From: an uncultured bacterium
GTDB taxonomy: Bacteria; Vulcanimicrobiota; Xenobia; Xenobiales; Xenobiaceae
NCBI GenBank assembly: GCA_958366945.1
Contig: CATXCY010000005.1
Span: forward strand, 19,708 to 83,707
Length of the DNA: 64,000 nucleotides
Direction: 5' to 3'
This document shows positions 5,904 through 27,492 of this stretch, in pieces. Numbering within the stretch: the stretch's first letter is position 1; every line of letters starts with the position of its first letter. Below the pieces are notes generated by a model. It was not told where the DNA came from, did no database searches, and saw only the letters and a program-made list of their open reading frames with translations. The position numbers were made by a program, and so were the translations under genes.

Positions 5904-7298
5904 GTGAATTATTCACCTTTAGATACAATTGTAGCAACGGCCACTCCTCCAGGTCTGGGAGGGGTGGCCATTGTGCGTATTAGTGGTTCTGAAGCTTTGT
6001 CTATACTTAAAATGGCTGTTAAAAATGGTCAGCAAAAAGTTTGGCAAGCTAGGCGTATGTATTATTGTGAAATAATAGATGAATATGGCCAAACAATAGA
6101 CAAAGCTTTAGCTGTATATATGCCTTCTCCTCACTCTTACACTGGTGAAGATGTAACAGAAATTCACTGTCACGGTGGCAGTGTTTTGGCTAGTGTAATT
6201 GTAGATATATGCTTACATTACGGAGCCCGTTTAGCTCAGCCGGGAGAATTTACTTATAGAGCTTTTATGGCCGGCAAATTAGATTTGGCTGAGGCTGAAT
6301 CTGTTTTGAGCTTAATTGAAGCTAAGTCTAAGAGCGCGGTAGTTTTGGCTGCTAACAACTTAAATGGAGCTTTTTCCGAATCTTTGGATAAGCTTCGAAG
6401 TGATATTTTGGATTTAATAGCTCAATATGAAGCTGAAATTGATTACGGTGACGAAATAGCCGCTTCTGATGTGTCACTAATTAAAGACAAATGTCAGACA
6501 TTTCTTAAATTTACTGATTCTTTGCTTTGTAGAGCCAATGAAGGACGTGCTTTAGCTGAAGGTCTGGAAACCGTTTTAGTAGGTCCTCCTAATGCCGGCA
6601 AGTCTACGCTGTGGAATGCTCTTATTGGACAAGATAAAGCTTTGGTGACTCCTTATCCTGGCACTACTAGAGATCAGCTTGAAGATTACGTCTACGTTGA
6701 CGGAGTGATGCTTCACTTGATAGACACGGCTGGAATGCATGAAGCTCAAGATCCTGTAGAACAGCTGGGCATAAAAAAGACTGAAGCGGCTTTAGAAAAA
6801 GCAGAATTAGCTGTCATCGTTCTTGATTGTAGCATTGACATAGAGTCTGACTTCAAAAAGATTATGTCAGACATATCAGAACGAGCCACGAAAAACGATG
6901 ATTTCAAGGTTTTGGTGGTTTTGAATAAGTGTGACTGTGGTATAAAATTGACGCCTAAGTCTGTCACTGAAACTTTTGGCTTCAAACATATTTGCCAAGC
7001 TAGTCTAAAATTTTCTGATGGCTTAGAAGATGTTAAAAAAAATATCGCTCAATTATGTTGTCCTCTTTTAAGTTCGGATAAAGCTGCTTTAAGTGTGAAT
7101 CAACGTCAACGTCAGGCCCTGACAAAAGTCAGAGAGGCTTTGTTGAGTCTAAATTCAGGCGTTGAGTCGAATGTGCCATGCGATTGTTTGCTTTTAGATT
7201 TGCACAATTGTCTGACAGCTTTGAATGAGTTGACAGGACATGATGTCAGTGAAGATATTTTAGATAGAGTTTTTTCTAAGTTTTGTTTGGGCAAGTAA
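5904..7298 (+). CDS. mnmE: tRNA modification GTPase MnmE (TrmE)
   Basis: 464 aa with a GTG start. The G-domain motifs GPPNAGKSTL and DTAG are present. The C-terminus ends in CLGK, which resembles the CxGK tail of TrmE. Confidence 0.9.
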   Translation: MNYSPLDTIVATATPPGLGGVAIVRISGSEALSILKMAVKNGQQKVWQARRMYYCEIIDEYGQTIDKALAVYMPSPHSYTGEDVTEIHCHGGSVLASVIVDICLHYGARLAQPGEFTYRAFMAGKLDLAEAESVLSLIEAKSKSAVVLAANNLNGAFSESLDKLRSDILDLIAQYEAEIDYGDEIAASDVSLIKDKCQTFLKFTDSLLCRANEGRALAEGLETVLVGPPNAGKSTLWNALIGQDKALVTPYPGTTRDQLEDYVYVDGVMLHLIDTAGMHEAQDPVEQLGIKKTEAALEKAELAVIVLDCSIDIESDFKKIMSDISERATKNDDFKVLVVLNKCDCGIKLTPKSVTETFGFKHICQASLKFSDGLEDVKKNIAQLCCPLLSSDKAALSVNQRQRQALTKVREALLSLNSGVESNVPCDCLLLDLHNCLTALNELTGHDVSEDILDRVFSKFCLGK

Positions 7299-7340
7299 TA
7301 CTTAGGCTTTGCTTTTTCTAAGGGAGATTTTTTTAATTAT

Positions 7341-9206
7341 ATGCAAAAATTTGATATAGCTGTTATTGGCGGTGGCCATGCCGGAGTTGAAGCGGCTTTG
7401 GTTTGTAGTCGTCTAGGCTGCAGAACGGCCGTAATTACTTCCAATCCTCTCAAGATAGGTGTTATGCCTTGTAATCCTTCTATAGGTGGTCCGGCTAAAT
7501 CCCATTTAGTACGAGAAATAGATGCTATGGGCGGAGAGATGGGCCGAGCTATAGATGATGTGTTTATTCACATAAGGCGTCTTAATACTGGCAAAGGTCA
7601 AGCTGTTCAAGCTTTAAGGGCCCAAGCTGATAGACCGCTTTATAATCAGCGCATGGTTAAAGCGGTTCATGAGGCTGACAATGTGACAGTAATTGCTGAC
7701 ACTGTTGTTAGTATTGTGTCAGACGATAATGTTATAAAAGGTTTGGTAACTGCTTCCGGTCTCAATATTGAATGTGGCGCTATAGTAATATGTACCGGTA
7801 CCTTTTTAGCTGGTGCTTTGCATTTAGACAAGTTTACTTTGCCTGGTGGCCGGGCTGGTGAAGCTCCTGCTTTTGGTTTGAGTCACTCTTTACGTAGTTT
7901 AGGATTACAGCTGGGACGTTTGAAAACGGGCACTTGTCCACGACTCCATCGTGACACTGTCAATATTGATGGTCTTGATATTTTGCCTTGCAAGTCAGAA
8001 CCTCTGAAATTTTCTGACATGTCACCAGACCCAGATTTCACTAAACCTACTGTCAATTGTTATATAACTCGCACTACGGAAGAAACCCGCCGGGCAGTTA
8101 TGAACAATTTGGACCGCTCCCCTCTTTACGATGGCTCTGGAGCTATTACCGGCATAGGCCCTCGTTATTGCCCTTCATTAGAAGATAAGTTTGTCCGTTT
8201 TCCTGATCGTAAAGTCCATTTAGTATTTCTAGAGCCGGAAGGTATAAATGCCAAAGAGATATATTTGCAAGGCGTTTCTACTAGTATGCCCTTAGATGTT
8301 CAGTATGCTATGGTACATAGTTTGCCTGGCTTAGAAAAAGCGGAAATTATCAGACCTGGGTATGCAGTGGAATATGACTATGTCTTGCCGACGCAACTTG
8401 ACTTTTCTTTAGGTGTCAGACATATCAAAGGATTGTATTTAGCTGGTCAAATAAATGGCACTTCTGGATATGAAGAAGCTGCCGCCCAGGGACTTATCGC
8501 CGGTCTCAATGCTGCCAGATATCTCGATAATCAAGAGCCGTTTATTGTGCGCCGCGATCAAGGCTACATAGGTGTGCTTATAGATGATCTCGTTTGCCGC
8601 GGCACTAAAGAGCCCTATCGTATGCATACTAGTCGTGCAGAATATCGTTTGCTTTTACGCGAAGATAATGCTGATGATCGCTTTACACCTCAAGCTAAAG
8701 AGATGGGCATTATTAGTGACAAACGTTGGGAAAAATATCTGTCGTTTAAATGTCAGGCTCAACAAGAGATTGAAAGATTGCGACATAAACATTTAAATTT
8801 AGATTTAGCTACTAAGTTAAGTCAAGCTTGTGGCAGTAAAATTGAGCCAGGTCCAGCTTTGTCAGAACTATTACATCGTCAGGATGTGTCTTTGTCAGTA
8901 ATACGTCAGTGTGAAGGCCTTGAGCCTTTTGAATTGCGTTTAAGCGAAAAAATTGAAGCGGCTATTCGCTATGAAGGTTATATAGAAAGACAACAGCGTG
9001 AAGTCAATCGTATGGCTAAGTTGGAAAATGTCAGACTTAGTCAAGATATGAACTACGCAAATGTTATTGGTATGTCAGCTGAAGCTGTAGAGAAATTGAC
9101 TAGGACTAAACCCTATAATATAGGGCAAGCCTCAAGAATTTCAGGAATTTCACCTTCAGACATAAATGCTCTCATGATCCATTTACGTAAAGTTATATCT
9201 AATTGA
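7341..9206 (+). CDS. mnmG: tRNA uridine 5-carboxymethylaminomethyl modification enzyme MnmG (GidA)
   Basis: 621 aa. The N-terminal FAD-binding motif is FDIAVIGGGHAGVEAA. It follows mnmE. Confidence 0.95.
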   Translation: MQKFDIAVIGGGHAGVEAALVCSRLGCRTAVITSNPLKIGVMPCNPSIGGPAKSHLVREIDAMGGEMGRAIDDVFIHIRRLNTGKGQAVQALRAQADRPLYNQRMVKAVHEADNVTVIADTVVSIVSDDNVIKGLVTASGLNIECGAIVICTGTFLAGALHLDKFTLPGGRAGEAPAFGLSHSLRSLGLQLGRLKTGTCPRLHRDTVNIDGLDILPCKSEPLKFSDMSPDPDFTKPTVNCYITRTTEETRRAVMNNLDRSPLYDGSGAITGIGPRYCPSLEDKFVRFPDRKVHLVFLEPEGINAKEIYLQGVSTSMPLDVQYAMVHSLPGLEKAEIIRPGYAVEYDYVLPTQLDFSLGVRHIKGLYLAGQINGTSGYEEAAAQGLIAGLNAARYLDNQEPFIVRRDQGYIGVLIDDLVCRGTKEPYRMHTSRAEYRLLLREDNADDRFTPQAKEMGIISDKRWEKYLSFKCQAQQEIERLRHKHLNLDLATKLSQACGSKIEPGPALSELLHRQDVSLSVIRQCEGLEPFELRLSEKIEAAIRYEGYIERQQREVNRMAKLENVRLSQDMNYANVIGMSAEAVEKLTRTKPYNIGQASRISGISPSDINALMIHLRKVISN

Positions 9207-9232
9207 TAAAAAGTGCCAGTCAGGTGTCTGAC

Positions 9233-9275
9233 AAAAAAAATCCGGCCAGATTAAAAAAGGCCGGATTTTTTTTTG
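9233..9275. terminator. bidirectional rho-independent terminator between convergent mnmG and lipoprotein genes
   Basis: A8-TCCGGCC-loop-GGCCGGA-T9: a perfect 7 bp GC stem flanked by an A-run and a T-run. Confidence 0.8.
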
Positions 9276-9291
9276 TCAGTAATCGCAGAAA

Positions 9292-10149
9292 TTATTTCTT
9301 GGTGGCAGCTTTGGTAGAATCAGCTCCTTTGTTTTTTGTATTGGCTTGAGCTTTAGTATTCTTGTCATCTTTGCTGGGGGGGCCTGGTTGAACTTTTTGG
9401 GGGTCAGCCTTTGTAAGTGACATGTCAAATTCTTTGTTTTTGTCAGTAGCTTTAAGGTGAATAGAAATTATGTTGTCACCCTTGACAATAATAGGAGCTT
9501 TGTCAAATTTGACAAGTGTATAGGAGTCAGTCGCTTTTTTAGCTTTGCCTTTGTCGGAATAAACTAAGACATTGTTGACATATACTTCCATGTCATTGTT
9601 GTAAAAAACATTCATGGTTGTATTTTTATAAAGAGTTGGATCTTCAACATTAAAGACACGGCGTAAAAGCAAGTTGTTACTATTGTCATTCCAGCTAATT
9701 TGGGTAGCGGGATCGAGTTCTGAGTTACCAGTTTTTATGACATTTCCCATAGGAGCTTGTCTTGTTCCCCAAGCTTTGGAATTAAAGTCTTGAGAGAACC
9801 AGCTGGGATTGTTGTTGACAAAAGTTTTGTAAGCGTCATCATTCATGACAATATATTGCCATTCGTCGCCATTACTGACACCTTCAGTAATTTTCTGACC
9901 TTGATGTCGGTAATAACCTGACTTTGTCAATTCTTTTTTGTCAGCATTAGGTTGGTGGGCTATAGCTTTAGATAATTTCTCATCAACCTTTACCTTTTCA
10001 GTGTTCACTTGTTCAGGCGTGCTTTGAGCTGTTGGTGTAGTTGGGCTTTGAGGAATTTTATTGTCAGCTGTATTATCGGGGCTGCAAGCGCTTAAAGATA
10101 AGCACAAAAGAGCTGCTGCTGATAAGAAAAAAGATTTTTTTAACGACAT
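9292..10149 (-). CDS. lipoprotein of unknown function
   Basis: The signal peptide carries a lipobox (MSLKKSFFLSAAALLCLSLSAC). A P/T/Q-rich linker is followed by a globular domain. The ATG at 10149 is preferred over the upstream TTG at 10167. Confidence 0.7.
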   Translation of the reverse strand: MSLKKSFFLSAAALLCLSLSACSPDNTADNKIPQSPTTPTAQSTPEQVNTEKVKVDEKLSKAIAHQPNADKKELTKSGYYRHQGQKITEGVSNGDEWQYIVMNDDAYKTFVNNNPSWFSQDFNSKAWGTRQAPMGNVIKTGNSELDPATQISWNDNSNNLLLRRVFNVEDPTLYKNTTMNVFYNNDMEVYVNNVLVYSDKGKAKKATDSYTLVKFDKAPIIVKGDNIISIHLKATDKNKEFDMSLTKADPQKVQPGPPSKDDKNTKAQANTKNKGADSTKAATKK

Positions 10150-10239
10150 GAAAGCTTTTAACCTCAAATAGAATTTTGCAATTTCAAACTTCAGTAGCCT
10201 TTAATTGAATCCCTTTTATATAGTCTGTTAGCGTATTTT

Positions 10240-10545
10240 TGAGTTTATGTCAGACTTTTATCCGTTGTCAGACAATAATATAGAGAGTAGGGGAGGAGTG
10301 TTACTGACAAATAATGTTGCAAGTCAGTAGTATATCAGTAATGCGCTGACACATGTCAGTAGTGTGCTTGACACATGTCTGTAATGTATTATTGTTGTTA
10401 CTGGCAAATGTCAGACATTTAATGTGTTACACGTAATATAGTATTTTCTTTGTATAAAACACTATATATAGTATGCTGCCATTACTGTCAAATGTCGGTA
10501 GTATGTCAGCTATATGTCAGACGGCGTGTCTGTAGTGCTTTGTAG
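10240..10545. repeat. cluster of TGTC(A/T)GACA palindromes and TGTCWGTARTG direct repeats in the mnmG-parB intergenic region
   Basis: Read directly: atgtcagac (10248), ttgtcagacaat (10265), ctgacaaat (10305), gtcagtagtat (10323), atcagtaatg (10336), ctgacacatgtcagtagtgtg (10346), gacacatgtctgtaatg (10370), atgtcagacattt (10408), ctgtcaaatgtcggtagtatgtcagc (10485), atgtcagacgg (10514), gtgtctgtagtgc (10526). Confidence 0.6.
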
Positions 10546-10923
10546 TGCATAACTACATCTATTTTTATAAATCATTTTGCAATGGCTTTTATCTTAAATT
10601 AAAAACACATGTTTTGCTAAGTATAAGTTTACACAAATAATCATTAAGAAAATCGATTATTGATTATAAAAATGTAATAATTATGCTAGTTAAAATGCGT
10701 AATTAAAAGCTCTAGCTATAGATGGAATTATTAGTTGTGCTTATTTGTTTACTCTTTTTGCCCGGGAAGGTAATAAAAACAGAGGGAAGAATGCAAAGAG
10801 AATTTTAGAACTGCAAGAACTACGAGGATGACCTGGTAATATTGTGTCCAGATGGACTTTTTTTATCGGTGATCTTACGACTTTAAGTCGTAGTTAGTTC
10901 AGTTTTTAGCAGACGAAAGGTCC

Positions 10924-11838
10924 TTGATTGGTTTGGACAGTTCAACTTCCGCAAAATTGACTGCTGAGCATCTGCCAGAGGACGGCTTTTCTTCGCAAAA
11001 TGATTTGGACTTAGAAGTTAAAGAAATTTCTATAGACGATATTTTGCAAAATCCGCTGCAACCTAGACGGGTTTTTGAAGAATCCGCTTTACAGGAATTA
11101 GCCGATTCCATAAAGGCTAATGGCATTATTCAGCCTGTCATTGTTACCAAATTACCAGAAGGCTACCGTCTGGTAGTGGGTGAACGCAGGTTTAGAGCGG
11201 CTAAAATGATCGGCCGCCAAACTATTCCAGCTATAGTTCGCAATTTGACCAACAAAGATATGTTGGAGCTGGCTTTAGTTGAAAATTTGCAACGCCAAGA
11301 TTTAAATCCCATTGAAGAAGCTCAGGCGCTCTCTTTTTTAATTGGAGAATTTAAGTTCTCTCACTATAAATTGGCTGAGCGCATAGGCAAAAGTCGCCCT
11401 TACATTACTAATTCTTTGCGTCTTTTGAGTTTGCCGATTCCTATAAAGGACGATTTACAGAATAATGTGCTTTCCAGCGGCCACGCCAGAGCTATTTTGT
11501 CACTTGAAGACGAGGTTCGTCAAATAGAAGCTTGGGAACACGTTAAAGTTGAGCAACTCTCCGTACGCAAAACTGAGGAGTATGTAAATACTCTCAAGGG
11601 ATTGAATGATTCTGCTGAAGAGTTGACAGAAAGTCATTCTGACAAAAAAACTGTTGCCGCCAAAGAGCCTCTTTCTCCTGAATGGAGAGATCTTTTGGAG
11701 AAACTTCGTTACAGTTTCGGCGCTGACATACGTTTAAATTCCCGTTCTGATGGCAAAGGCAGGCTAGAATTTCACTTTAAAAATCAGGAAGAACTGGAAA
11801 GAATTGTCGAATGTTTTATTTACCTGATGAAGTCTTAG
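10924..11838 (+). CDS. parB: ParB/Spo0J/Noc-family chromosome partitioning protein; TTG start proposed
   Basis: The ParB N-terminal box (GIIQPVIVTKLPEGYRLVVGERRFRAAKMIG) and an HTH region (SHYKLAERIGKSRPYITNSLRLLSLP) are present. No parA or soj gene is adjacent. Confidence 0.85.
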   Translation: MIGLDSSTSAKLTAEHLPEDGFSSQNDLDLEVKEISIDDILQNPLQPRRVFEESALQELADSIKANGIIQPVIVTKLPEGYRLVVGERRFRAAKMIGRQTIPAIVRNLTNKDMLELALVENLQRQDLNPIEEAQALSFLIGEFKFSHYKLAERIGKSRPYITNSLRLLSLPIPIKDDLQNNVLSSGHARAILSLEDEVRQIEAWEHVKVEQLSVRKTEEYVNTLKGLNDSAEELTESHSDKKTVAAKEPLSPEWRDLLEKLRYSFGADIRLNSRSDGKGRLEFHFKNQEELERIVECFIYLMKS

Positions 11839-11899
11839 ATCGCAGTTTGGTCTTTAGGGGCTTTCTGCAGCCGTAGTTAGCCACAGTTAGTTGGGTTTT

Positions 11900-12622
11900 A
11901 TGGAGATTTTAATGAAAGAGCTTATCAGACAGGGCATACAGTCTATAGATAATCCCTTAATAAAAGCGACTGAAGAAGAGCTTGATCGTCTAGCCGAATT
12001 TGCACAAAATTTGCTTGAGCATGGCAGCGAGAGGGGACTTACGGCTTTAACAAATCCTGAAGATATAGTTAGAGAGCTGATTGTTGATTCTTTGGGAGCT
12101 ATGCCATACATTGGGCAAGATCAGCGTATTGCTGATATTGGATCTGGTGCTGGTGTACCCGGCATACCTTTAGCTATAGTGCGTCCTGAATCATTTTTCA
12201 TTTTGGTTGAATCTCAGAATCGAAAGTCCGCTTGGATCGAAGAACAAATCTTAAATTTGGGCATTCAAGCCAAAGCTCATGCTTTGCCTATGCGTATAGA
12301 AGATGTTGCCCACAGTGATAACTGGCGTGGCAAGCTGGACTTTGTTACTGCTAAAGCTCTTTCTGCGTTACCGTCTTTAATAGAATTAGCAGTTCCGCTC
12401 TTAAAAGTAAATGGTTGTCTTTTAGCTTATAAGGGTGTGAAGTTCCAAGAAGAAATTGAACAATCGGCCAATGCTTTAGATAAACTTCACGCTAAAGTTG
12501 ATGAAATATTTTCTTACACTCTTTATGGGCGCGAGCGTCATATATGTGTTATAAGAAAAATGAAGCCTACACCTAAGTCTTATCCAAGACGAGTAGGAAT
12601 GCCTCAGCACAGTCCACTTTAA
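11900..12622 (+). CDS. rsmG: 16S rRNA (guanine527-N7)-methyltransferase RsmG (GidB)
   Basis: It has the SAM-binding motif DIGSGAGVPGIPLAI and an RsmG-like length. It lies in the origin-proximal gid cluster. Confidence 0.85.
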   Translation: MEILMKELIRQGIQSIDNPLIKATEEELDRLAEFAQNLLEHGSERGLTALTNPEDIVRELIVDSLGAMPYIGQDQRIADIGSGAGVPGIPLAIVRPESFFILVESQNRKSAWIEEQILNLGIQAKAHALPMRIEDVAHSDNWRGKLDFVTAKALSALPSLIELAVPLLKVNGCLLAYKGVKFQEEIEQSANALDKLHAKVDEIFSYTLYGRERHICVIRKMKPTPKSYPRRVGMPQHSPL

Positions 12623-13133: not shown

Positions 13134-14258
13134 GTGAGGATTGCTGCTGTGGCTAAATCTAAAGTTTATTTTGCTGATATATCTGTCAGTATGGAAAGAC
13201 CTTTATTAGTAAAATTTCGTCACCTTTTGGAAAAGTCTGGCTTAAAAGAGCTTCCCTTAAAAGATCATTTTGTAGCTATCAAAACTCATTTTGGTGAGTT
13301 CGGAAATTTGGCAGCTCTGCGTCCCAACTATGCTAGAGTTTTATGTGATTATATAAAAGAATTGGGCGGACGTCCTTTTTTGACTGATTGCAATACTTTA
13401 TACGTTGGTGGACGCAAAAATGCACTCGACCATTTAGATACGGCCAATTTTAATGGTTATAGTGTTATTACTACCGGAGTACATAATATTATTGCCGATG
13501 GTCTTAAAGGTAATGATGAAGTTGAAGTTCCGGTAGAAGGTGGAGAATATATTAAAAAGGCTAAAATTGGCCGTGCCATTATGGATGCCGACGTTTTTAT
13601 TTCCTTAAGCCACTTTAAAGGGCATGAAATGGCCGGCTTTGGTGGAGCTTTGAAAAACATTGGTATGGGCTCTGGCTCGAGAGCTGGCAAAATGGATATG
13701 CATTGTGCCGGTAAACCTACCGTAAATGAAAGCTTGTGTGTCGGTTGTCGTCGTTGTCAAAAAATTTGTGCCCATAATGCTCCAACTCTCAAAGGCAAAG
13801 TTATGTTTATTGATCACGACAAGTGTGTCGGTTGCGGTCGTTGCTTAGCTATTTGCCCTCGTGATGCTATTGAAGCCAATGGCTACGATTCTAGCGATAT
13901 TATGAATCGCAAGATCGCTGAATATAGCAAGGCAGTTATTGATAAACGCCCTCACTTCCATATCTCTTTGGCCATAGATATTACTCCCACTTGTGATTGT
14001 CATGCTGACAATCCTTTGCCTATTGTTCCTAATGTAGGTATGTTCGCTTCTGCTGATCCTGTGGCTATAGATGTAGCTTGCGCAGATATGGTCAACAAAC
14101 AGCAACCTATTCCGGGAAGTGTTTTGGCTGAAAGTAAAGTTGAAGGTGGCGATCATTTTTATAAAACAGCTCCAGTAACCAATTGGCGCAGCTGTGTCGA
14201 GCATGCTCAAAAAATTGGCATAGGTTCTATGGATTATGAGTTAATTAAAGTCAACTAA
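13134..14258 (+). CDS. DUF362-family protein with 2x[4Fe-4S] ferredoxin domain
   Basis: Two CxxCxxCxxxCP-type motifs are present (CVGCRRCQKICAHN and CVGCGRCLAICPRD). The N-terminal DUF362-like region is present. GTG start. Confidence 0.75.
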   Translation: MRIAAVAKSKVYFADISVSMERPLLVKFRHLLEKSGLKELPLKDHFVAIKTHFGEFGNLAALRPNYARVLCDYIKELGGRPFLTDCNTLYVGGRKNALDHLDTANFNGYSVITTGVHNIIADGLKGNDEVEVPVEGGEYIKKAKIGRAIMDADVFISLSHFKGHEMAGFGGALKNIGMGSGSRAGKMDMHCAGKPTVNESLCVGCRRCQKICAHNAPTLKGKVMFIDHDKCVGCGRCLAICPRDAIEANGYDSSDIMNRKIAEYSKAVIDKRPHFHISLAIDITPTCDCHADNPLPIVPNVGMFASADPVAIDVACADMVNKQQPIPGSVLAESKVEGGDHFYKTAPVTNWRSCVEHAQKIGIGSMDYELIKVN

Positions 14259-14478: not shown

Positions 14479-14813
14479 ATTGAAATTAATCTAATCAGTT
14501 TACTTTAATTAGTTTTGTTATTTGTTTGTATACAACATATAGTATTTTTTGCTTTATATAGTTGCTATGTATCCACATTTATAATACATATCACACGTTT
14601 GCCGGTTTGACATTTAGCTAATGGATGCAAGTTATGACTTGCTATTACATTTGCTGAAAAATTTTGATATCTAGACAATCCGACATTATGATAAAAATTT
14701 TTATCTTATAATCCAAATAGGCTAGGGTAGGGGACAGGTGGTATTTGATGGTCTTGTGAGGTGGCTTATATTTTTAATAGCTTACGCATTTTTTTATAGA
14801 TATTTGTTACTAA

Positions 14814-14853
14814 AATAAAAAAATCTCCGGCAGTGATTACTGCCGGAGATTTT
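14814..14853. terminator. bidirectional terminator
   Basis: A-run, then ATCTCCGGCAGT-gatt-ACTGCCGGAGAT, then T-run. It sits downstream of the convergent lipoprotein gene. Confidence 0.8.
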
Positions 14854-14938
14854 GGCTACTAGATAGCCTAGCTTATTTCATCATCGCCATTATTGATGGC
14901 TTTTAGTTACGAGATAGCCAGTTCTTTTACTCGCTCTA

Positions 14939-17065
14939 CTAGTAAATGTTTAATTCATTTCTATCTATAACGGTAGAGGCGTCGTCACCGTCTAAAAGGA
15001 TATTTCTCGATCTCATAACTTCATCAATGATGTTTTGAGCGCGGCAGCCATTATATTTGGCATCTACTTTAAGCATGGCAATAGCTGCTCTGCGGTATAC
15101 GAATTTTTGAGCAAGTTGAAACTGATTATCAAATTCTCCCTTCTCCATGTCGCCCAATCCCCACATCAGCAATTCCATGGCTTCTTGACCGGCAGCTTTT
15201 AAGGCTATAGCACTATCCATGCCTGCGTCTATATTACGTTGAGCAATGCCTGTCATTATGTCGTAAAAAGCACCGCTAAATATAAGAGAGGCTGTCAAAT
15301 GTTCACTCTTGCCGGATATCACCTCTAATGTATCGTAGTTAATTGTTTTGTTGCAATTTATTCCTTCTCTCCATTTGTCATTGTTGATTAGTTGGCGTAA
15401 GCAATCGCGTTTATTGTATTGACCGACTTCTTCGCCAATAGACGATAAACAATTGACTTTTCGCCAATTACCTTGACATTGTTTGACGGCCAAACGACAA
15501 ACATCGATATTTTGAGATGACATGTACAAGGCTACTATGTCTTTAAAAGCCTCTTCAAAGCAAGGAATTTCACCCATAAGGATCTGTAAATCGTCTCTGC
15601 AAGGAAATGGATGCTTAATCATGTCTCCTAAGATAAAAGCGCCGGTTTCTCTGGCGACTATCTCTCCGGAAGCTCCAGCGTAAATATTTTGACCATTTTC
15701 ATTAGGGGCATAAGGAAGTGTTATAAGTGAACCATTTCCGTAAAGATGTGGATTTAAACGTACATCAGGTTCTGGCCGATATGTAGTAGAATAATAACCA
15801 CCAATTTTCATATAGGCTTCATTTAATTCATACGGTTCTATTGCAGTGGAAAATACATCTATGTGACTGAATTTGCTGCCATTTCTGCAACCATTTGATA
15901 AAATTGCTGTTATTTTTTCTGACGTTTGAATAATGGTAGCTAGACAGTTGGCAGCGACATATTTTTCTGGATCTGTTTTGTAGTCAAAAACGTAATTCTT
16001 CTGGCTATTAGGATAAAATTCAAAATATTGTGTAAACCCTGAGCTACCACGATATGGAGCGAGCTCATATTCAACTCCTGCGTTGTCAAGTGTGAAAGAC
16101 ACCGTCGTGGGAGGCATTACGGTATTATCTTGTGGGTTGTAAGAAAATTCCCACAAATGATTGCGAGCTACCTGAAAAGCGCCTGAAGAATTTGATACGT
16201 TCCCGTTGGCAGTTTTGATAGTTACATTAATGGAATAGTCACCTCCAGAAGATTGCACAATATCAAATCGGCCAATTCTGTAAGGATCGCGTATCATTAA
16301 GGCTTCGCCGGCTACTTGAGGTAAATCTATTTCGTCGACTAACCCTATAACATCGTCTATGACAACATTGTCGGCGGTAATTAACTTTAATGTGCAAGTG
16401 ATGTAGCCGCCTTTAGCAGTTTCGGTTTTGTCAGGCTGAAGTTCCCATCTGGCGCCTTTAACTGAATGAATAGCAGTATCTACTTCTTCTGTCTCAACTT
16501 TAGCTAACTTGCCCAGAGCTACTTTACCGAGAGAACTTTGAGTTTGTGTTTGGTCCAGCTTTAACCTAGTACTACTGACGGCAGCTACTTTGTCTTCGTC
16601 GTTGTAATAGAAGCAAGTAATGGTATTGGCGTCTTGGGGAACGTCCTTTATAGCCATTTCTTTAGCCTCAGAATCGAGGTTCAGAGTGCCTTCCAGAAGC
16701 TTAGCTTGACCTTCGCCATCGTCGAGATCTTTAGCTACGAGGTAGCGAGCTTTGACTACTTTCAAATTTTGCAATTCGGCAATAGATTTAGAGTCAAATT
16801 GCAAACTGATTTGACGACTTTCTTCTTCCGTAGGCTGCTCCGGATTGGGAGTATTTGGAGTATTGGGGGTACTCGGAGTTGCAGGTGTAGTAGGTGTACT
16901 CGGATCGTTAGGCGTAGGCTCTGTAGAAGGAGTAGAAGTTGAAGAAGAAGCGGGGAACGCGGGAGTAGTACTTCCGCTGTCGCCACAACCGGAAATGAAG
17001 GCACTTCCAAAGATTAGGCTAGTAGCAATAGCTGAATATGCGAAAACGCGTGCTTTTTTGTTCAT
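14939..17065 (-). CDS. surface lipoprotein, variable paralog A (708 aa)
   Basis: Lipobox signal peptide (SAFISGC), a P/T-rich linker, and a conserved N-terminal ~150 aa. The middle is variable. The C-terminal module (CRLAVKQCQG...FSGAFYDIMTGIAQRNID...KAAGQEAMELL) is conserved and shared with the downstream paralog. Confidence 0.85.
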   Translation of the reverse strand: MNKKARVFAYSAIATSLIFGSAFISGCGDSGSTTPAFPASSSTSTPSTEPTPNDPSTPTTPATPSTPNTPNTPNPEQPTEEESRQISLQFDSKSIAELQNLKVVKARYLVAKDLDDGEGQAKLLEGTLNLDSEAKEMAIKDVPQDANTITCFYYNDEDKVAAVSSTRLKLDQTQTQSSLGKVALGKLAKVETEEVDTAIHSVKGARWELQPDKTETAKGGYITCTLKLITADNVVIDDVIGLVDEIDLPQVAGEALMIRDPYRIGRFDIVQSSGGDYSINVTIKTANGNVSNSSGAFQVARNHLWEFSYNPQDNTVMPPTTVSFTLDNAGVEYELAPYRGSSGFTQYFEFYPNSQKNYVFDYKTDPEKYVAANCLATIIQTSEKITAILSNGCRNGSKFSHIDVFSTAIEPYELNEAYMKIGGYYSTTYRPEPDVRLNPHLYGNGSLITLPYAPNENGQNIYAGASGEIVARETGAFILGDMIKHPFPCRDDLQILMGEIPCFEEAFKDIVALYMSSQNIDVCRLAVKQCQGNWRKVNCLSSIGEEVGQYNKRDCLRQLINNDKWREGINCNKTINYDTLEVISGKSEHLTASLIFSGAFYDIMTGIAQRNIDAGMDSAIALKAAGQEAMELLMWGLGDMEKGEFDNQFQLAQKFVYRRAAIAMLKVDAKYNGCRAQNIIDEVMRSRNILLDGDDASTVIDRNELNIY

Positions 17066-17082
17066 GATAATCTCCTCTCAGG
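16605..17082. repeat. 478 bp direct repeat, copy 1 (5' end of lipoprotein A plus the RBS region)
   Basis: Identical to 18767..19244 except one substitution at 17053. The overlapping antisense ORFs in the track have identical translations (16634..16942 matches 18796..19104). Confidence 0.9.
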
Positions 17083-17190
17083 TAGAGATATTAAGTTGCA
17101 ATGTTTACTTTTGCTCATATTGGAGAGCAAAGTTGTGGTAAGCGGACTTTAGCCATAAAGCCCGCCAGATTAACAAAATGATTAGCTTAG

Positions 17191-19227
17191 TTATTTCTCC
17201 CAGTGAGGCAAAACAGTAGAAGCGCTGTCGTCCTCTTGAAGGATTTTTCTCTCTTTCATAACTTTCGTGATAATTTCTGTATTGCGTCCGCCGTTGCTCT
17301 GGGCATCAATTTTGAGCATAGCTATAGCAACTTTGCGGTACATATAACTATCTTGATCGCCGTGCATGCGCAAATCATTGCTATGCAATCCTTTTACAAG
17401 TAATTCCATAGCTTCTTGTCCGGCTGCTTTAAGGGCCAAGGCGCTATCCATACCGGAGTCTATATTGCGCTGAGCTATGCCAGTCATAATGTCATAATAA
17501 GCACCACTGAAGATTAGTCCCCATTCTTGGTAGTCAAGTGCTGTAAAATCTTTACTTACAGTTCTGCCGTCATTTGACCATTGACGATCATTTATAAGTA
17601 AGCGCAAGCAATCATGTCCGCCATATTGTCCGACTTCTTCTCCCAGAGCTGCTAAGCAGTTGCTCTTTTTCCAATCGCCTTGGCATTGCTTGACGGCCAG
17701 GCGACAAACGTCAATATCTTGTGAAGACATATAGAGGGCTAGTATATCTTTGAAAGCTTCTTCAAAGGCGGGGAAGTCTTTTTCACTTGAAAGAGGGGTC
17801 TTAAGGATAGGATAGCCTAAGCAACTTGCAATTCCTGATAAAATATGACTGCCAATTCCGCGAGCGGCGATTTCTCCCGAAGCTCCGGAGAAAACTTCTG
17901 TGCTGTTCTCTTGTTTAGCAAAAGGAAAAACTAGGGTTACAAAATTAACTTTATCTAAATACGAATAGGATCCGTAATTAACCATAGAGGTTTTATCCAA
18001 TTCGTATGGCTTAATAGCAACGTCAACGCCTACACCATTCTCAGGAGAAGCATAGTCACTCAGTATTGTTACCATTTTGTCTTCAGCCAGCAAAGCTGTG
18101 GCTATGCAATTGGCAGAGACATATTCCAATGGGTTGTCTTTAAAACTGAAAACGTAGTTCTTTTGGCTGTTGGGGTAGAATTCAAAGCCGTTAATAAATT
18201 CTATATTGTTTCGCTTGGGGGCAGTTGCCGATTCGCTGTCGTAGTTGGACAGTTTAAGCGATACTGTAGTGGGAGAACAAACCGTATTATCTTGTGGATT
18301 ATAGGAAAATTCCCACATATAATCTCGGCCTACTAGGAAAACAGCACGGTTAGGTTTTATATATTTTATGCCACTGTCTGTGACTACTAACCTAATGCCA
18401 ATTTCCAGTTCGCTACTTTGATCTTCAACAACTTGGTATCGCCCTATGATATTTTCAGAAGCGGGCGCAAGGCAATCTTTTCCGTCAATTTGAGGAATGT
18501 CTAGTTCACTATCAGCTAAGCCGATAACATTATCTATGACTGTATTATCGTCGGCAACCAATTTTAAAGTATAAGTAACATATTCGTCTTTGGCTACTTC
18601 GGCTTTATCTGATTTCAGTTCCCAAGTGGCATCTTTAACTGAATGAACGCTTGTTTCAACTTCTTCAGCTTCATCTTTAGCCAGTTTGCCAAGTCTTTGT
18701 TGTGGTTTTGCGTTATTAAGTTTTAATCTGGTAAAGCCGACTGCAGCTAACTCATTTCCTTCGTTATAATAGAAGCAAGTAATGGTATTGGCGTCTTGGG
18801 GAACGTCCTTTATAGCCATTTCTTTAGCCTCAGAATCGAGGTTCAGAGTGCCTTCCAGAAGCTTAGCTTGACCTTCGCCATCGTCGAGATCTTTAGCTAC
18901 GAGGTAGCGAGCTTTGACTACTTTCAAATTTTGCAATTCGGCAATAGATTTAGAGTCAAATTGCAAACTGATTTGACGACTTTCTTCTTCCGTAGGCTGC
19001 TCCGGATTGGGAGTATTTGGAGTATTGGGGGTACTCGGAGTTGCAGGTGTAGTAGGTGTACTCGGATCGTTAGGCGTAGGCTCTGTAGAAGGAGTAGAAG
19101 TTGAAGAAGAAGCGGGGAACGCGGGAGTAGTACTTCCGCTGTCGCCACAACCGGAAATGAAGGCACTTCCAAAGATTAGGCTAGTAGCAATAGCTGAATA
19201 TGCGAAAACGCGTGTTTTTTTGTTCAT
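17191..19227 (-). CDS. surface lipoprotein, variable paralog B (678 aa)
   Basis: The first ~153 aa match paralog A except for one A5T substitution. The central region diverges and the C-terminal module is conserved but not identical. Confidence 0.85.
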   Translation of the reverse strand: MNKKTRVFAYSAIATSLIFGSAFISGCGDSGSTTPAFPASSSTSTPSTEPTPNDPSTPTTPATPSTPNTPNTPNPEQPTEEESRQISLQFDSKSIAELQNLKVVKARYLVAKDLDDGEGQAKLLEGTLNLDSEAKEMAIKDVPQDANTITCFYYNEGNELAAVGFTRLKLNNAKPQQRLGKLAKDEAEEVETSVHSVKDATWELKSDKAEVAKDEYVTYTLKLVADDNTVIDNVIGLADSELDIPQIDGKDCLAPASENIIGRYQVVEDQSSELEIGIRLVVTDSGIKYIKPNRAVFLVGRDYMWEFSYNPQDNTVCSPTTVSLKLSNYDSESATAPKRNNIEFINGFEFYPNSQKNYVFSFKDNPLEYVSANCIATALLAEDKMVTILSDYASPENGVGVDVAIKPYELDKTSMVNYGSYSYLDKVNFVTLVFPFAKQENSTEVFSGASGEIAARGIGSHILSGIASCLGYPILKTPLSSEKDFPAFEEAFKDILALYMSSQDIDVCRLAVKQCQGDWKKSNCLAALGEEVGQYGGHDCLRLLINDRQWSNDGRTVSKDFTALDYQEWGLIFSGAYYDIMTGIAQRNIDSGMDSALALKAAGQEAMELLVKGLHSNDLRMHGDQDSYMYRKVAIAMLKIDAQSNGGRNTEIITKVMKERKILQEDDSASTVLPHWEK

Positions 19228-19244
19228 GATAATCTCCTCTCAGG
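18767..19244. repeat. 478 bp direct repeat, copy 2
   Basis: See copy 1. The offset is exactly 2162 bp. Confidence 0.9.
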
Positions 19245-19665
19245 CAGGGATAACAGGGACGTTTTCAGTTGCTATAAGCCTATTTTTTGGCAATCAATTT
19301 ACAAAAAATATACAGAAAAAACAAAAACGAAATGTCAGTAGCAATAAATAAAAACAATAATTGCTTTTATTTTACTGTATAAGATGTGCACAATAAAAGA
19401 ATTGAGCACAAGCAAACAAAGCTTAAAAGCTCCCTTGAAAACGCCTATTTTAATTGATAAACGCGAACACTTGAATGCAAATTTGCTGTCTGAAATTAAA
19501 AAAAGGACATACACTTGCAGACAGAAACACACAGGCTGAACCGTCCCTTGGCGGTTCGATCAGTTTAATAATACACGCACATTAAATAAGATGCAAGATA
19601 TATAAACAAAAAAACGCAGTTTATGGCTTGACTACAAGCTGAAACCGCGTTTTTTCGGGCATTTT

Positions 19666-21813
19666 TTAAGCTAAATTGCCTGTTCTGGGGCATTCTTCGA
19701 GGACGGTAGCTGAATGGGGAGGTAGAGTACAATACTTACTAACTTTGTACACACTAGGATCGCTGTAAGTATTGACAACAACTTGCCATTGAGCCCAAGG
19801 TTTAGCCTGCGGTAAGGTAAATTCTCTGGGACACATATCGTTGTTGAAAAGTAAAAGGAAAGAGCTGTCTTTAAGTTTGTTGCATTTTTCGTCTAGATCG
19901 TCGAGCCATTCGCCATCAATGTACATGCCAAAGGCACCGCAACTTTGCTGATCCCAATCTGAACCGTGCATTTCCTTGCCGCTTAAGTTAAGCCAAACAA
20001 CATCTTTGGCGCCGCTTTCTGTTTGGCCTCTGAAAAAAGTCGAGCGCCTAAAAGCTGGGTGCTTTTGGCGAAGTTCGATGACGGCTTTGGTAAAAGCAAA
20101 AAGTTGTTGCTGTTTAGGGCTTATATTCCAGTTGTAATAAGAAATTTCATTATCTTGGCAATAAGCATTATTGTTTCCATATTGGGTGCGGGCAATTTCA
20201 TCACCGCCCAAGAGCATAGGAATGCCTTGACTGAGCAAAATAGTTAAGATGAAATTGCGCATTTGACGCCAGCGCAAGTTCATAATACCTTCGTTGGTGG
20301 TAGGCCCTTCATAACCGCAATTCCAGTTGTTATTGTCGTTGGTGCCATCTCGATTACCTTCGCCGTTAGCTTGATTGCGCTTTTGCTGGTAAGTAACTAA
20401 ATCATACAAGGTAAAACCGTCATGAGCTGTGACAAAATTTATGCTGGCTAAAGGACTCCTATTCCAATACAAATCGCTGGAACCGCTCAATTTGGAGGCC
20501 ATTTTACCTAAAAGGCCTCCATCGCCTTTCCAAAAGCGTCTCACGGTGTCGCGCCAATCGCCATTCCATTCGCTCCAACCTTTAGGAAATTTTCCCACTT
20601 GGTAGCCATCAGGGCCGCAATCCCAAGGCTCGGCGATAAGCTTAGTGCGATTTAAAATTGGATCTTGGGCCAGAACTCCCAAAAAGCTGGAGTGAGTGCG
20701 ATAATTATTACCGGAAGCAGTACGAGCTAAAGTTGTAGCTAGGTCAAAACGGAAACCATCGACATGCATTTCCTGTACCCAATAGCGCAAACTATCGGCT
20801 ACTAATTGTAAGGTACGCGGATTTCTGGTGTCTAAACTATTACCGCAACCGGTAAAATTGCAATAATTGTGCTGGCAACTGGGCTCTAAGCGATAATAAG
20901 TGGGGTTGTCTAAGCCACGCATAGAGAGCTGTGGCCCGTCGTTGCCTTGCTCGGCAGTATGGTTGTAAACCACATCTAAGATAACTTCGATGCCTGCTTT
21001 ATGCAAAGCTTTTACCATAGACTTAAATTCGTTTACTGCGTCGGGAGAGGAACTGTAACGAGGATCGGGACAGAAGAAGCCTAAGCTATTGTATCCCCAA
21101 TAATTGCTTAAACTAAGGCCGTCGAGACGCCCTTCGCTGGCAGATAAGTGAATAGGCAATAGTTCTACGGCCGTAATGCCTAAATCTTTAAGGTAATTGA
21201 TAGAGTCAGGATGGGCCAAGCCTGCGTAAGTTCCGCGTATCTTTTCAGGAAGTGAAGTTTTCAACTTAGTGAAACCTTTAACATGGACTTCATAAATAAT
21301 AGTTTCGTTTAAAGGCCTACGCAGTGGCTGATCGCCTTCCCAGTCGAAAGCTTCATCGTCTACAACTACACTCTTAAGCATATAAGGAGCGCTGTCGCGT
21401 ACGTCGCGGCTGAACAAATTGGTTCTGCGCAAAGAACTTTGGCTATTTTTAGTGTATTTTTCATAGCCGTAGATTGCATCGCAATTGATTAGCTTACCGC
21501 TGACAGCTTTGGCATAAGGATCTAAAAGAAGTTTATCAGGATTAAAATATAAGCCATGATTAGGATCGAAAGAACCATGGGCTCTATATCCATAGCGAAG
21601 TCCGGGTTTAGCTTGAGGCAAAAAACAGTGCCAAACACCTTCAACTTGATTCATATGGATATTCGGTTTGATTTCATTGCCGTCTTTGTCGAAGAGGCAT
21701 AAAACAACCATAGTGGCATTCTCTGAATAAACGGCAAAATTTACGCCTTCACCTGTCCAGGTTGCTCCCAGAGGGTACTTCTCTCCTGGACGAATGTCAT
21801 AGGGAATACTCAT
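19666..21813 (-). CDS. glgX: glycogen debranching enzyme GlgX (GH13)
   Basis: 715 aa. It has the N-terminal CBM48-like region (YPLGATWTGEGVNFAVYS) and the GH13 catalytic regions (GFRFDLA, AEPWD). Confidence 0.85.
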   Translation of the reverse strand: MSIPYDIRPGEKYPLGATWTGEGVNFAVYSENATMVVLCLFDKDGNEIKPNIHMNQVEGVWHCFLPQAKPGLRYGYRAHGSFDPNHGLYFNPDKLLLDPYAKAVSGKLINCDAIYGYEKYTKNSQSSLRRTNLFSRDVRDSAPYMLKSVVVDDEAFDWEGDQPLRRPLNETIIYEVHVKGFTKLKTSLPEKIRGTYAGLAHPDSINYLKDLGITAVELLPIHLSASEGRLDGLSLSNYWGYNSLGFFCPDPRYSSSPDAVNEFKSMVKALHKAGIEVILDVVYNHTAEQGNDGPQLSMRGLDNPTYYRLEPSCQHNYCNFTGCGNSLDTRNPRTLQLVADSLRYWVQEMHVDGFRFDLATTLARTASGNNYRTHSSFLGVLAQDPILNRTKLIAEPWDCGPDGYQVGKFPKGWSEWNGDWRDTVRRFWKGDGGLLGKMASKLSGSSDLYWNRSPLASINFVTAHDGFTLYDLVTYQQKRNQANGEGNRDGTNDNNNWNCGYEGPTTNEGIMNLRWRQMRNFILTILLSQGIPMLLGGDEIARTQYGNNNAYCQDNEISYYNWNISPKQQQLFAFTKAVIELRQKHPAFRRSTFFRGQTESGAKDVVWLNLSGKEMHGSDWDQQSCGAFGMYIDGEWLDDLDEKCNKLKDSSFLLLFNNDMCPREFTLPQAKPWAQWQVVVNTYSDPSVYKVSKYCTLPPHSATVLEECPRTGNLA

Positions 21814-26880: not shown

Positions 26881-27492
26881 TTAGGCTTCGGAATTTTTCT
26901 CGCCAGTCACGATCTCGCCGGTTACAATGTAACGGCCTCCGTTTACCTTTTCACCGCTATTGTCGGTTTGATCCCATTTTACTGAGAAGACACGCTCCTC
27001 GTTGGGCAGAATTGTAAGCACCTTTTGATTGCTGAAGTTTTTATTGGCCTTGGAATAGCGCCAAATTTCAATAGGTACTTTATCAAAAAAGACATTTACT
27101 TGCTGTTGCACCACAAAGTCTACTTTAGAATCTTTGGAAAAATCCAAAGTTTTGGGCAAACCAGTTGTATTGGTAATAGACATTGTTAAATATATGCCGT
27201 CTTTTTCACGGTCAGATATTTTCATGGTGTAGTAGAGGCCGTCTGAAGATTGGTTGGCTTCGTTGCCTACGGCACCGGCGCGTGAAACGATGGAATAGCG
27301 AACGAAAACCATAAAAGCAACAAACAGACAGGCTAAAACGATCATAACCAATTTAGCGTCTGCTTTGCTATCTTGAAGGTGGCGGCTGCTCTTGCGTACT
27401 CTGGCTACTGGAGCTGTCGTGTTGCTTAGTCCAACCGTTTGGGGATCAGACATAATATTCGTCACTTCTCCTACTGATTTTTGATTACTCAT
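26881..27492 (-). CDS. membrane-anchored protein with a C-terminal Ig-like beta-sandwich domain, possibly BsuPI-like
   Basis: A single TM helix (LVMIVLACLFVAFMVFV) is followed by a domain whose residue pattern (DFSKDSKVDFVV...WRYS...LPNEERVF...W...GRYIVTGEI) resembles intracellular-proteinase-inhibitor folds. Confidence 0.5.
   Translation of the reverse strand: MSNQKSVGEVTNIMSDPQTVGLSNTTAPVARVRKSSRHLQDSKADAKLVMIVLACLFVAFMVFVRYSIVSRAGAVGNEANQSSDGLYYTMKISDREKDGIYLTMSITNTTGLPKTLDFSKDSKVDFVVQQQVNVFFDKVPIEIWRYSKANKNFSNQKVLTILPNEERVFSVKWDQTDNSGEKVNGGRYIVTGEIVTGEKNSEA

Follow-up and report, generated by a model that had tools for sequence, protein, structure and literature searches.

A strain-variable array of predicted lipoprotein genes with a homogenised 5' end in uncultured gut Xenobia

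The stretch of DNA analysed here (hereafter the window) comprises 64,000 nucleotides (nt) of contig CATXCY010000005.1 from an uncultured bacterium of the human gut, class Xenobia. It contains two genes, B and A, which are arranged head-to-tail on the minus strand and encode predicted lipoproteins (Table 1). Wherever it occurs, this array lies between glgX and a DUF362 Fe-S gene, near gidB, parB, gidA, trmE, dnaA and dnaN. The two genes begin with an almost identical block of 478 bp, which starts 17 nt 5' of the ATG, includes the ribosome binding site (RBS) GAGAGGAG and extends through codon 153. The two copies of this block are offset by 2162 nt and differ by a single mismatch (17053/19215; G in gene A, A in gene B), and identity collapses past both edges. 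An identity of this extent is far above chance expectation. It reproduces exactly, in coordinates and in offset, the repeat reported in the original prediction for this DNA, which had been made from the letters alone.

Both genes, and all full-length members of the family to which they belong, share the N-terminus MNKK(A/T)RVFAYSAIATSLIFGSAF-ISGC27. This N-terminus has the charged n-region, the hydrophobic core and the lipobox ([LVI][ASTVI][GAS]C, here F-I-S-G-C27) of a lipoprotein signal peptide. It is followed in both proteins by a proline/threonine (P/T)-rich stretch, in line with the original description of the products as lipoproteins with a P/T-rich stalk. Indels of 9-nt repeat units between strains fall in the stalk-coding stretch. 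Judging by these motifs, the products of A and B would be lipidated and located in the envelope or at the cell surface.

Beyond the block, in what we call the body of each gene, A and B are strongly diverged. Their protein identity is 98-100% over amino acids (aa) 1-150, 16-62% over aa 150-500, with the minimum of 16% at aa 251-300, and 38-78% over the C-terminal ~200 aa. The original prediction had likewise described a diverged centre and a C-terminal part that is conserved yet non-identical. Synonymous sites outside the block are saturated (proportion of synonymous differences, pS, 0.70-0.74), whereas inside the block there is only one synonymous difference per 108 sites. Nei-Gojobori estimates on the codon alignment gave a synonymous divergence (dS) between A and B of 0.009 for the 5' module, and saturated values of 2.1, 2.2 and 3.2 for three body segments. 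Hence, the split between A and B is old, and the identity of their 5' ends reflects a recent homogenisation.

Table 1. Features of the lipoprotein array in the window (positions on the forward strand; ORF, open reading frame; AF2, AlphaFold2; pLDDT, predicted local distance difference test; MFE, minimum free energy).
Feature	Position	Strand	Description
Accessory island, ~4.7 kb	14882-19607	.	Both genes, upstream region and inter-copy spacer; clean indel relative to empty-site genomes
Gene B	17191-19227	-	678 aa; first in array; type-B body; from ORF list
Gene A	14939-17065	-	708 aa; second in array; type-A body; from ORF list
Homogenised 5' module of gene B	18767-19244	-	RBS and codons 1-153
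Homogenised 5' module of gene A	16605-17082	-	RBS and codons 1-153
Predicted lipoprotein signal peptide of B	19147-19227	-	aa 1-27; lipobox ISGC, Cys27; sequence MNKKTRVFAYSAIATSLIFGSAFISGC
Predicted lipoprotein signal peptide of A	16985-17065	-	aa 1-27; lipobox ISGC, Cys27; contains A6 tract 17054-17059 and mismatch 17053
P/T-rich stalk of B	18979-19146	-	aa 28-83
P/T-rich stalk of A	16817-16984	-	aa 28-83
First beta-sandwich domain of A	16565-16816	-	aa 84-167; contains the end of the conversion tract (codon 153/154)
Second, variable beta-rich region of A	16166-16498	-	~aa 190-300; AF2 model residues 109-214, pLDDT 55-85
M36/M4-like pseudo-peptidase domain of B	17194-18315	-	aa 305-678; from alignment with A and remote homologues
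M36/M4-like pseudo-peptidase domain of A	14942-16153	-	aa 305-708
Degenerate HExxH site of B	17842-17880	-	SGEIAA-R-G-I-G-S-HI; both His and the catalytic Glu replaced
Degenerate HExxH site of A	15632-15670	-	SGEIVA-R-E-T-G-A-FI; both His replaced, Glu kept; same in all A-type copies
Third-ligand motif FEEAFKD of B	17746-17766	-	Retained
Third-ligand motif FEEAFKD of A	15539-15559	-	Retained
Upstream intergenic region of array, presumed promoter	19245-19665	-	Hypervariable between strains of the same species
11-bp stem-loop in B-A spacer	17142-17166	-	No U tract; fold of 17066-17195 has MFE -31.6 kcal/mol, z = -3.2
Intrinsic-terminator-like hairpin	14820-14853	-	15-bp stem and T run, downstream of gene A; only strong one of the array; kept at empty sites

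Only ~10 clusters among 5.8 billion protein clusters belong to this family; all come from gut metagenomes, contain no Pfam domain and lie at this locus, and all members are complete ORFs, each with an RBS. When GTDB genomes were pattern-scanned with the family alignment, no member turned up, and a glgX-anchored comparison showed that the species representatives carry empty sites. The relatives of the window, which are referred to by L numbers, belong to Candidatus Bruticola (class Xenobia, phylum Vulcanimicrobiota in the NCBI taxonomy). They form two clades. Clade I includes the window, L005-L007, L009, L010 and L024-L032, whose flanking housekeeping genes are 99.6-100% identical to those of the window. 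Clade II includes L001-L004, L008, L012 and L023, for which this identity is 85-89%. By these values, clade I represents one species and clade II a sister species.

Bodies of three types can be recognised: A (window gene A, L005_1 and L002_1), B (window gene B, L009_1, L001_1, L002_2 and L008_1) and C (L001_2, L002_3 and L008_2). The bodies cluster by type, since type-B orthologues are 87-91% identical between the two species, much like the housekeeping genes, and different types are only 51-67% identical. For instance, the body of gene B is 100% identical to that of the first copy in L009 and has 87-91% nucleotide identity to its type-B counterparts in the sister species. Similarly, the body of gene A matches that of the only copy in L005 at 100% identity and that of the first copy in L002 at 76-91%. 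The 5' module, by comparison, clusters by lineage regardless of the body type that follows it, with identities of 97.4-99.6% within clade I, 95-99.4% within clade II and 88.7-91.6% between them. Its dS between species is 0.35-0.38, which we regard as equal to that of orthologous bodies (0.41-0.61), and its dS among paralogues is 0.009-0.126. The module thus diverges normally between species yet is homogenised among paralogues, which argues for gene conversion and not for constraint. Paralogues are closer than orthologues in the converted segment only, and the 5' module is under concerted evolution by gene conversion. This agrees with the original prediction, which ascribed the 5'-confined identity to gene conversion: the module follows the lineage, the bodies follow their type, and body dS exceeds 2. 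The alignment also contains mosaic patches common to copies of unlike type, such as an A/C-like patch in L001_1 just past the module (segment 463-750).

Two simpler explanations would be a recent tandem duplication, or purifying selection that acts on signal peptide and stalk and keeps the 5' ends identical. Both would fit the tandem layout and the N-terminal protein sequence, which is conserved in all members. A recent duplication is at odds with the synonymous saturation of the A and B bodies and with the presence of sister-species orthologues of type A as well as type B, which imply that the duplication is old. Constraint is at odds with the synonymous changes that the module gains between species (dS 0.35) but not between its paralogues. 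We therefore rejected both explanations, which we consider barely credible.

Products of recombination between copies are found in the sister species. The first gene of clade II arrays always starts with MHHNAR..., and it continues into a type-A body in the three-copy arrays (L002, L023) and into a type-B body in the two-copy arrays (L001, L008). In L001_1, all 59 informative upstream sites and eight sites at nt 4-96 match copy 1 of L023, two sites at nt 461-462 and all 157 sites beyond nt 470 match copy 2, and none is discordant. The breakpoint is located between nt 96 and 461, and the remaining array is 99.8% identical to L023. L008_1 has a like structure in comparison with L002, with its breakpoint at ~nt 303-307. 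The arrays of L001 and L008 have the structure that a crossover of copies 1 and 2 in their 5' modules, or the reciprocal insertion, would be expected to yield. These natural chimeric haplotypes have their breakpoints in the shared segment, with the caveat that they come from short-read assemblies. The original expectation that recombination between the repeats would delete one copy and create a chimera is borne out at the population level by the pairs L001/L023 and L008/L002.

The exactness of the identity in the window might partly originate from assembly. The window resembles a short-read metagenome contig, and bubble-popping in the 478-bp repeat could mask a few true differences; in that case the modules would be ~95-99% alike and would have been collapsed to one consensus. 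The only mismatch does lie close to the unique upstream flank, at a distance of 30 nt, where reads can be anchored, and in the sister assembly L009 a scaffold gap of 100 N falls exactly at, and inside, the 5' module. Moreover, differences of 0.6-5% separate the copies of the sister species. Yet, copies 1 and 2 of L023, an independent assembly, are identical over nt 97-460, and even an identity of 95% against a saturated body would still mean concerted evolution. Inflation of the identity by assembly is, in our view, unlikely.

The copy number of the array varies from zero to three. The interval between glgX and the DUF362 gene measures 514-780 nt in loci with no copy (L012, L013, L014, L015 and L018), 3243 nt with one copy (L005 and L006), 5164-5461 nt with two copies (window, L001, L008 and L009) and 7665 nt with three copies (L002). 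Hence, the relatives do not share a single conserved gene, the finding named in the original prediction as pointing to a simple duplication, but carry between zero and three copies, which belong to three diverged types. The empty site of L012, with 774 nt between glgX and the DUF362 gene, aligns to the window until ~58-79 nt past the glgX stop and resumes ~57 nt past the stop of gene A. The glgX terminator region is retained at the empty site. The flanking genes of L012 are 99.3-100% identical to those of the three-copy L002, and with flanks so nearly identical the presence or absence of the array is polymorphic within one species.

A single A gene is the most frequent arrangement in clade I; it occurs as a 708-aa form in 19 contigs and as a 705-aa form in 8 contigs from SPAdes, MEGAHIT and Logan assemblies. 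The type-A cluster at 90% identity has 18 members, which lie on ~40 contigs, and the B-type cluster has only 3 members. The B-A tandem of the window is therefore a minority haplotype. If the single-copy state had resulted from collapsed assemblies, orphan B bodies would have been left and called as proteins; none were seen, so the single-copy state is real. The upstream spacer of the window is only 78-82% identical to that of L005 and L010, though the flanking genes are 99.6% identical. Similarly, the DUF362 gene (13134-14258) drops to 96.3% identity between strains that are 99.6% identical elsewhere. The combination of a divergent spacer and DUF362 gene with a 100% identical A body, as in the window and L005, suggests allele exchange by recombination between strains. 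Recombinational variation at the strain level is supported by these data.

Two of the contigs have unusual structures. The L023 contig (7190 nt, 96x coverage) consists of the three-gene island alone and ends ~467 nt and 242 nt beyond it. Its ends could be due to the presence of both occupied and empty sites in the sample. L010, a clade I strain, has a single gene with a C-like body (8001-9689; P0007), in which an in-frame loss of ~146 aa (AELQNL to NLPQVAG) takes out most of the first beta-sandwich. The contig ends ~100 nt past this gene, and the loss may be a real deletion or a join made in the Logan assembly.

The C-terminal part of the proteins was not recognised by direct comparisons: a Pfam scan of A and B found no family at E<=1 save a spurious match to PRCC, NCBIfam gave no relevant match, and the narrow family profile had 0 matches among the PDB sequences. 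A family profile without the signal peptide and stalk matched 326 proteins at E<=1e-3 among 1.84 billion. These remote homologues are mostly 450-550 aa long, and most of them match only the C-terminal ~360 profile positions. They have an intact HExxH motif, and many have weak Pfam matches to Peptidase_M36 or M4. When the profile was widened, it matched the PDB chains of aureolysin, thermolysin and fungal M36 peptidases. The two-lobed fold of the thermolysin type is present in the family. The motif FEEAFKD, which is invariant in the family, aligns with NESFSD of aureolysin and NEAxSD of thermolysin and contains the third zinc ligand; the outgroup has FHE[AS]F[GA]D at this helix.

Other catalytic residues have been lost. 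Both zinc-binding His are absent in 17/17 family copies, and types B and C have lost the catalytic Glu as well. At the site where the outgroup has H-E-x-x-H (40/40), type A reads R-E-T-G-A, type B R-G-I-G-S, type C R-G-V-A-S and the L010 copy G-G-V-G-S. The region of the His231 equivalent, E-x-H-x-[FW]-S-R in the outgroup, reads D-Y-Q-E-W-G-L in type B, without His, and E-H-L-T-A-S-L in types A and C, where the His is displaced by one position. The proteins might still be active metallopeptidases with non-canonical metal ligands, as their thermolysin-like fold is intact, the third-ligand Glu motif is retained and the A-type copies keep the Glu of HExxH. We consider this very improbable, because every copy has Arg and Ala/Ser in place of the two His ligands, the changes at the Glu and at the His231 equivalent add to this loss, and HExxH is kept in all 40 aligned homologues outside the family. 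The alignments thus point to a catalytically dead, thermolysin/fungalysin-like domain, i.e., a non-peptidase homologue, which the original prediction had not recognised in the conserved C-terminal module. Most likely, this domain would serve as a ligand-binding module. The most variable segments are placed in loops and in the second beta-sandwich.

In comparison with the M4/M36 peptidases (clan MA(E)), the family has lost the zinc-binding His and, in types B and C, the Glu, and it does not reach any Pfam or NCBIfam threshold. Furthermore, its proteins combine this domain with a lipoprotein signal, a stalk and beta-sandwich domains. The closest relatives with an intact site, P0159 and P0160, are 491 aa long, show 33-34% identity, contain HEAGH or HEVGH and have no obvious signal peptide. 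The GC content and tetranucleotide usage of the P0160 contig match the Bruticola lineage (r = 0.94). On this contig (L022, 4631-9198), a paralogue of 488 aa, likewise without an obvious signal peptide, comes after P0160, and before it lie pilin-like N_methyl genes and a gene whose product has an ADP-ribosylating exotoxin domain (PF03496).

Both genes had also been noted for an A6/A7 tract at their start. The tract is present, and gene A has A6 where gene B has A7, but this difference is caused by a G/A substitution (Ala versus Thr) that leaves the length unchanged. No variation in the length of the tract was found across the ~17 sequences aligned over it, and the first copies of the sister species have CACCATAAC in its place. 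These assemblies are consensus sequences, and the comparisons of A tracts and arrays apply between assemblies, not within populations.

Some single copies are frameshifted, and no frameshift alleles were found besides these. The resulting 620-aa variants (~9 contigs) go back to the deletion of one nucleotide from the stalk-coding region (CCTGCAACT to CCT-AAACT), a loss that splits the gene into an ORF of 97-100 aa and an ORF of 620 aa. The deletion is common to the three contigs examined (L024, L025 and L026), and L024 contains a second deletion besides it. Slippage of the A tract was rejected as the source of these variants, as the lesion is a 1-nt deletion in a non-repeat part of the stalk. 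Since the three contigs come from independent samples, the deletion represents an inherited null allele. The single A gene is dispensable in some lineages, as is apparent from these frameshift alleles.

Little regulatory sequence could be recognised. Sigma-70-like sites were absent from the coding strand upstream of either gene, a scan of 14600-19800 was not enriched over shuffles, and an Rfam scan of 14-20 kb gave no match. The B-A spacer is 125 nt long, and its stem-loop is conserved before downstream copies in both species (L001, L002 and L008). This stem-loop could terminate transcription in part, serve as a processing site or stabilise the mRNA. Co-transcription of the array from the upstream region seems plausible.

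The original prediction proposed a locus for antigenic variation. Programmed antigenic or phase variation within a single strain would switch the expressed body through exchange of the 5' modules or through slippage of the A6/A7 tract. The architecture would permit this: there is one upstream region, the 5' modules are identical, recombinant arrays occur naturally and the one strong terminator lies at the end. In addition, an island-only contig broken at the island borders, such as L023, would fit a mixed population. However, no silent or partial cassettes were found in the 64-kb window by tblastn and blastn, and no further module-bearing proteins were found among the 5.8 billion clusters, so that the additional cassettes envisaged in the original prediction did not emerge. 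Among the neighbours glgX, ychF, DUF362, gidB and parB no recombinase was called. An invertible promoter was rejected, as the inverted repeats at 19200-19700 are only short, imperfect, weak and AT-rich. Furthermore, the A tract varies by substitution only and is missing from the first copies of the sister species, every gene copy is a complete ORF preceded by an RBS of its own, and the same haplotypes recur in many unrelated samples, which suggests stable inheritance. The locus thus shows neither the expression site with silent donors of cassette-type antigenic variation (vlsE, pilE/pilS or tprK type), nor homopolymer or short-repeat phase variation (Mycoplasma vlp or Neisseria opa type), nor site-specific inversion (Mycoplasma vsa/vsp or Bacteroides invertible promoters). 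Programmed switching was not borne out by these results, and we consider it quite improbable. A more speculative proposal would be that the array is an antigenic-variation device driven by deletion and duplication, in which only the promoter-proximal gene is well expressed, RecA exchange swaps the body during colonisation of one host, and the dead domain forms a surface facing host ligands or immunoglobulin A. We are equally doubtful of this proposal.

We consider it likely that the locus is a strain-variable island of Xenobia, consisting of old lipoprotein paralogues of types A, B and C with a dead thermolysin-fold domain, where conversion of the 5' end and unequal crossover lead to 0-3 copies. 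According to this explanation, RecA-type recombination between copies would repeatedly homogenise the first ~460 nt and the RBS. The homogenised block would in turn offer a substrate for unequal crossover, by which whole genes could be removed or added and chimeras could be made. The outcome would be 0-3 copies, with different body types behind a single upstream region in different strains. Of this explanation, the data show the 5' identity and its concerted evolution, the polymorphism in copy number and the recombinant haplotypes, as well as the fold of the domain and the loss of its catalytic residues.

Several points weigh against this explanation. All sequences are metagenome assemblies, in which a repeat of 365-478 bp can be collapsed or mis-joined by short-read assemblers, and the two-copy haplotypes of L001 and L008 as well as the exactness of the identity in the window could be partly artefactual. 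The ratio of nonsynonymous to synonymous divergence (dN/dS) is below 1 in all segments (0.06-0.44), and positive diversifying selection is not demonstrated; with values below 0.5 in every segment, we do not claim that codons are under diversifying selection. The frameshifted single copies could reflect weak rather than balancing selection. Finally, the functional half of the explanation is affected by its indirect nature, as we infer the surface exposure, the binding function, the selection by host immunity or phages and the transcription mainly from the upstream region.

Similar gene arrangements are known from other bacteria. The vlp, vsp and vsa loci of Mycoplasma are tandem lipoprotein gene clusters with a conserved 5' end, which encodes the prolipoprotein signal peptide, divergent bodies and a gene number that varies by strain. 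They switch by slippage of a promoter poly-A tract or by site-specific inversion, and their bodies consist of internal tandem repeats. The array studied here resembles them in its tandem lipoprotein genes, shared 5' end, divergent bodies and strain-dependent gene number. In contrast to the Mycoplasma loci, no recombinase, inverted repeats or homopolymer length variation were found at this locus, the conserved block extends into the mature protein for 126 aa, and globular pseudo-enzyme domains make up the bodies.

The babA, babB and babC genes of Helicobacter pylori have near-identical 5' (and 3') segments around divergent middles and form chimeras by conversion (PMC4552749, PMC5483490). The likeness extends to the encoded products, as both are families of surface-protein paralogues under concerted evolution, and to the differences between strains in copy number and in the paralogue present per locus. 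The bab genes differ in being dispersed, in switching phase by CT repeats and in encoding beta-barrel adhesins. Here, the genes form a tandem array and encode predicted lipoproteins, only the 5' end is homogenised, and switching within a host is not seen from the assemblies. The bab genes and the variable lipoprotein loci of Mycoplasma appear to be the closest analogues, although neither is homologous to this array.

For the dead domain, a parallel might be drawn with CspC and CspA of Clostridioides difficile, which retain a protease fold without its catalytic residues and are thought to have been reused for ligand recognition (PMC6636752, PMC7200643). The resemblance lies in the kept fold and the lost residues. 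CspC and CspA are spore proteins with a subtilisin fold; they are not lipoproteins and are not part of a recombining array, so that the analogy would be functional only.

The Xenobia (Eremiobacterota/Vulcanimicrobiota) are uncultured gut bacteria, represented here mostly by assemblies from Hadza and other metagenomes. In the literature searched for Xenobia and Bruticola we found nothing on this locus or on their surface biology. The locus offers a first candidate for a strain-variable envelope protein family in Xenobia, and one that can be tracked: its site near the origin with conserved flanks makes it typable by polymerase chain reaction or long reads. In the window, the island lies ~12-17 kb from dnaA (1613-3085), with dnaN at 207-1328 and trmE, gidA/mnmG, parB and gidB/rsmG within 5904-12622.

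The locus is also a clean natural case of a 5'-restricted conversion tract that provides the homology for copy-number change. The genetic mechanism is familiar from families of surface-protein genes, and no general principle is altered by it. In addition, the results add a previously unannotated family of pseudo-enzymes with a predicted thermolysin/fungalysin fold; the same lineage also has a sister family that is apparently active. Such a pair is well suited for studying how a secreted protease may turn into an anchored binding module.

Three other genes of the window are of interest. A protein with a BsuPI (intracellular proteinase inhibitor) domain is encoded at 26881-27492, ~7 kb from the array; it is conserved in all related contigs, and no link with the array has been established. 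The 2335-aa TamB/AsmA-like protein encoded at 49400-56407 suggests a diderm envelope with an outer membrane. Next to it, at 56527-61041, lies the gene for a 1504-aa BspA-type leucine-rich-repeat protein (LRR_5, E = 7e-193), which is another likely surface or host-interaction protein.

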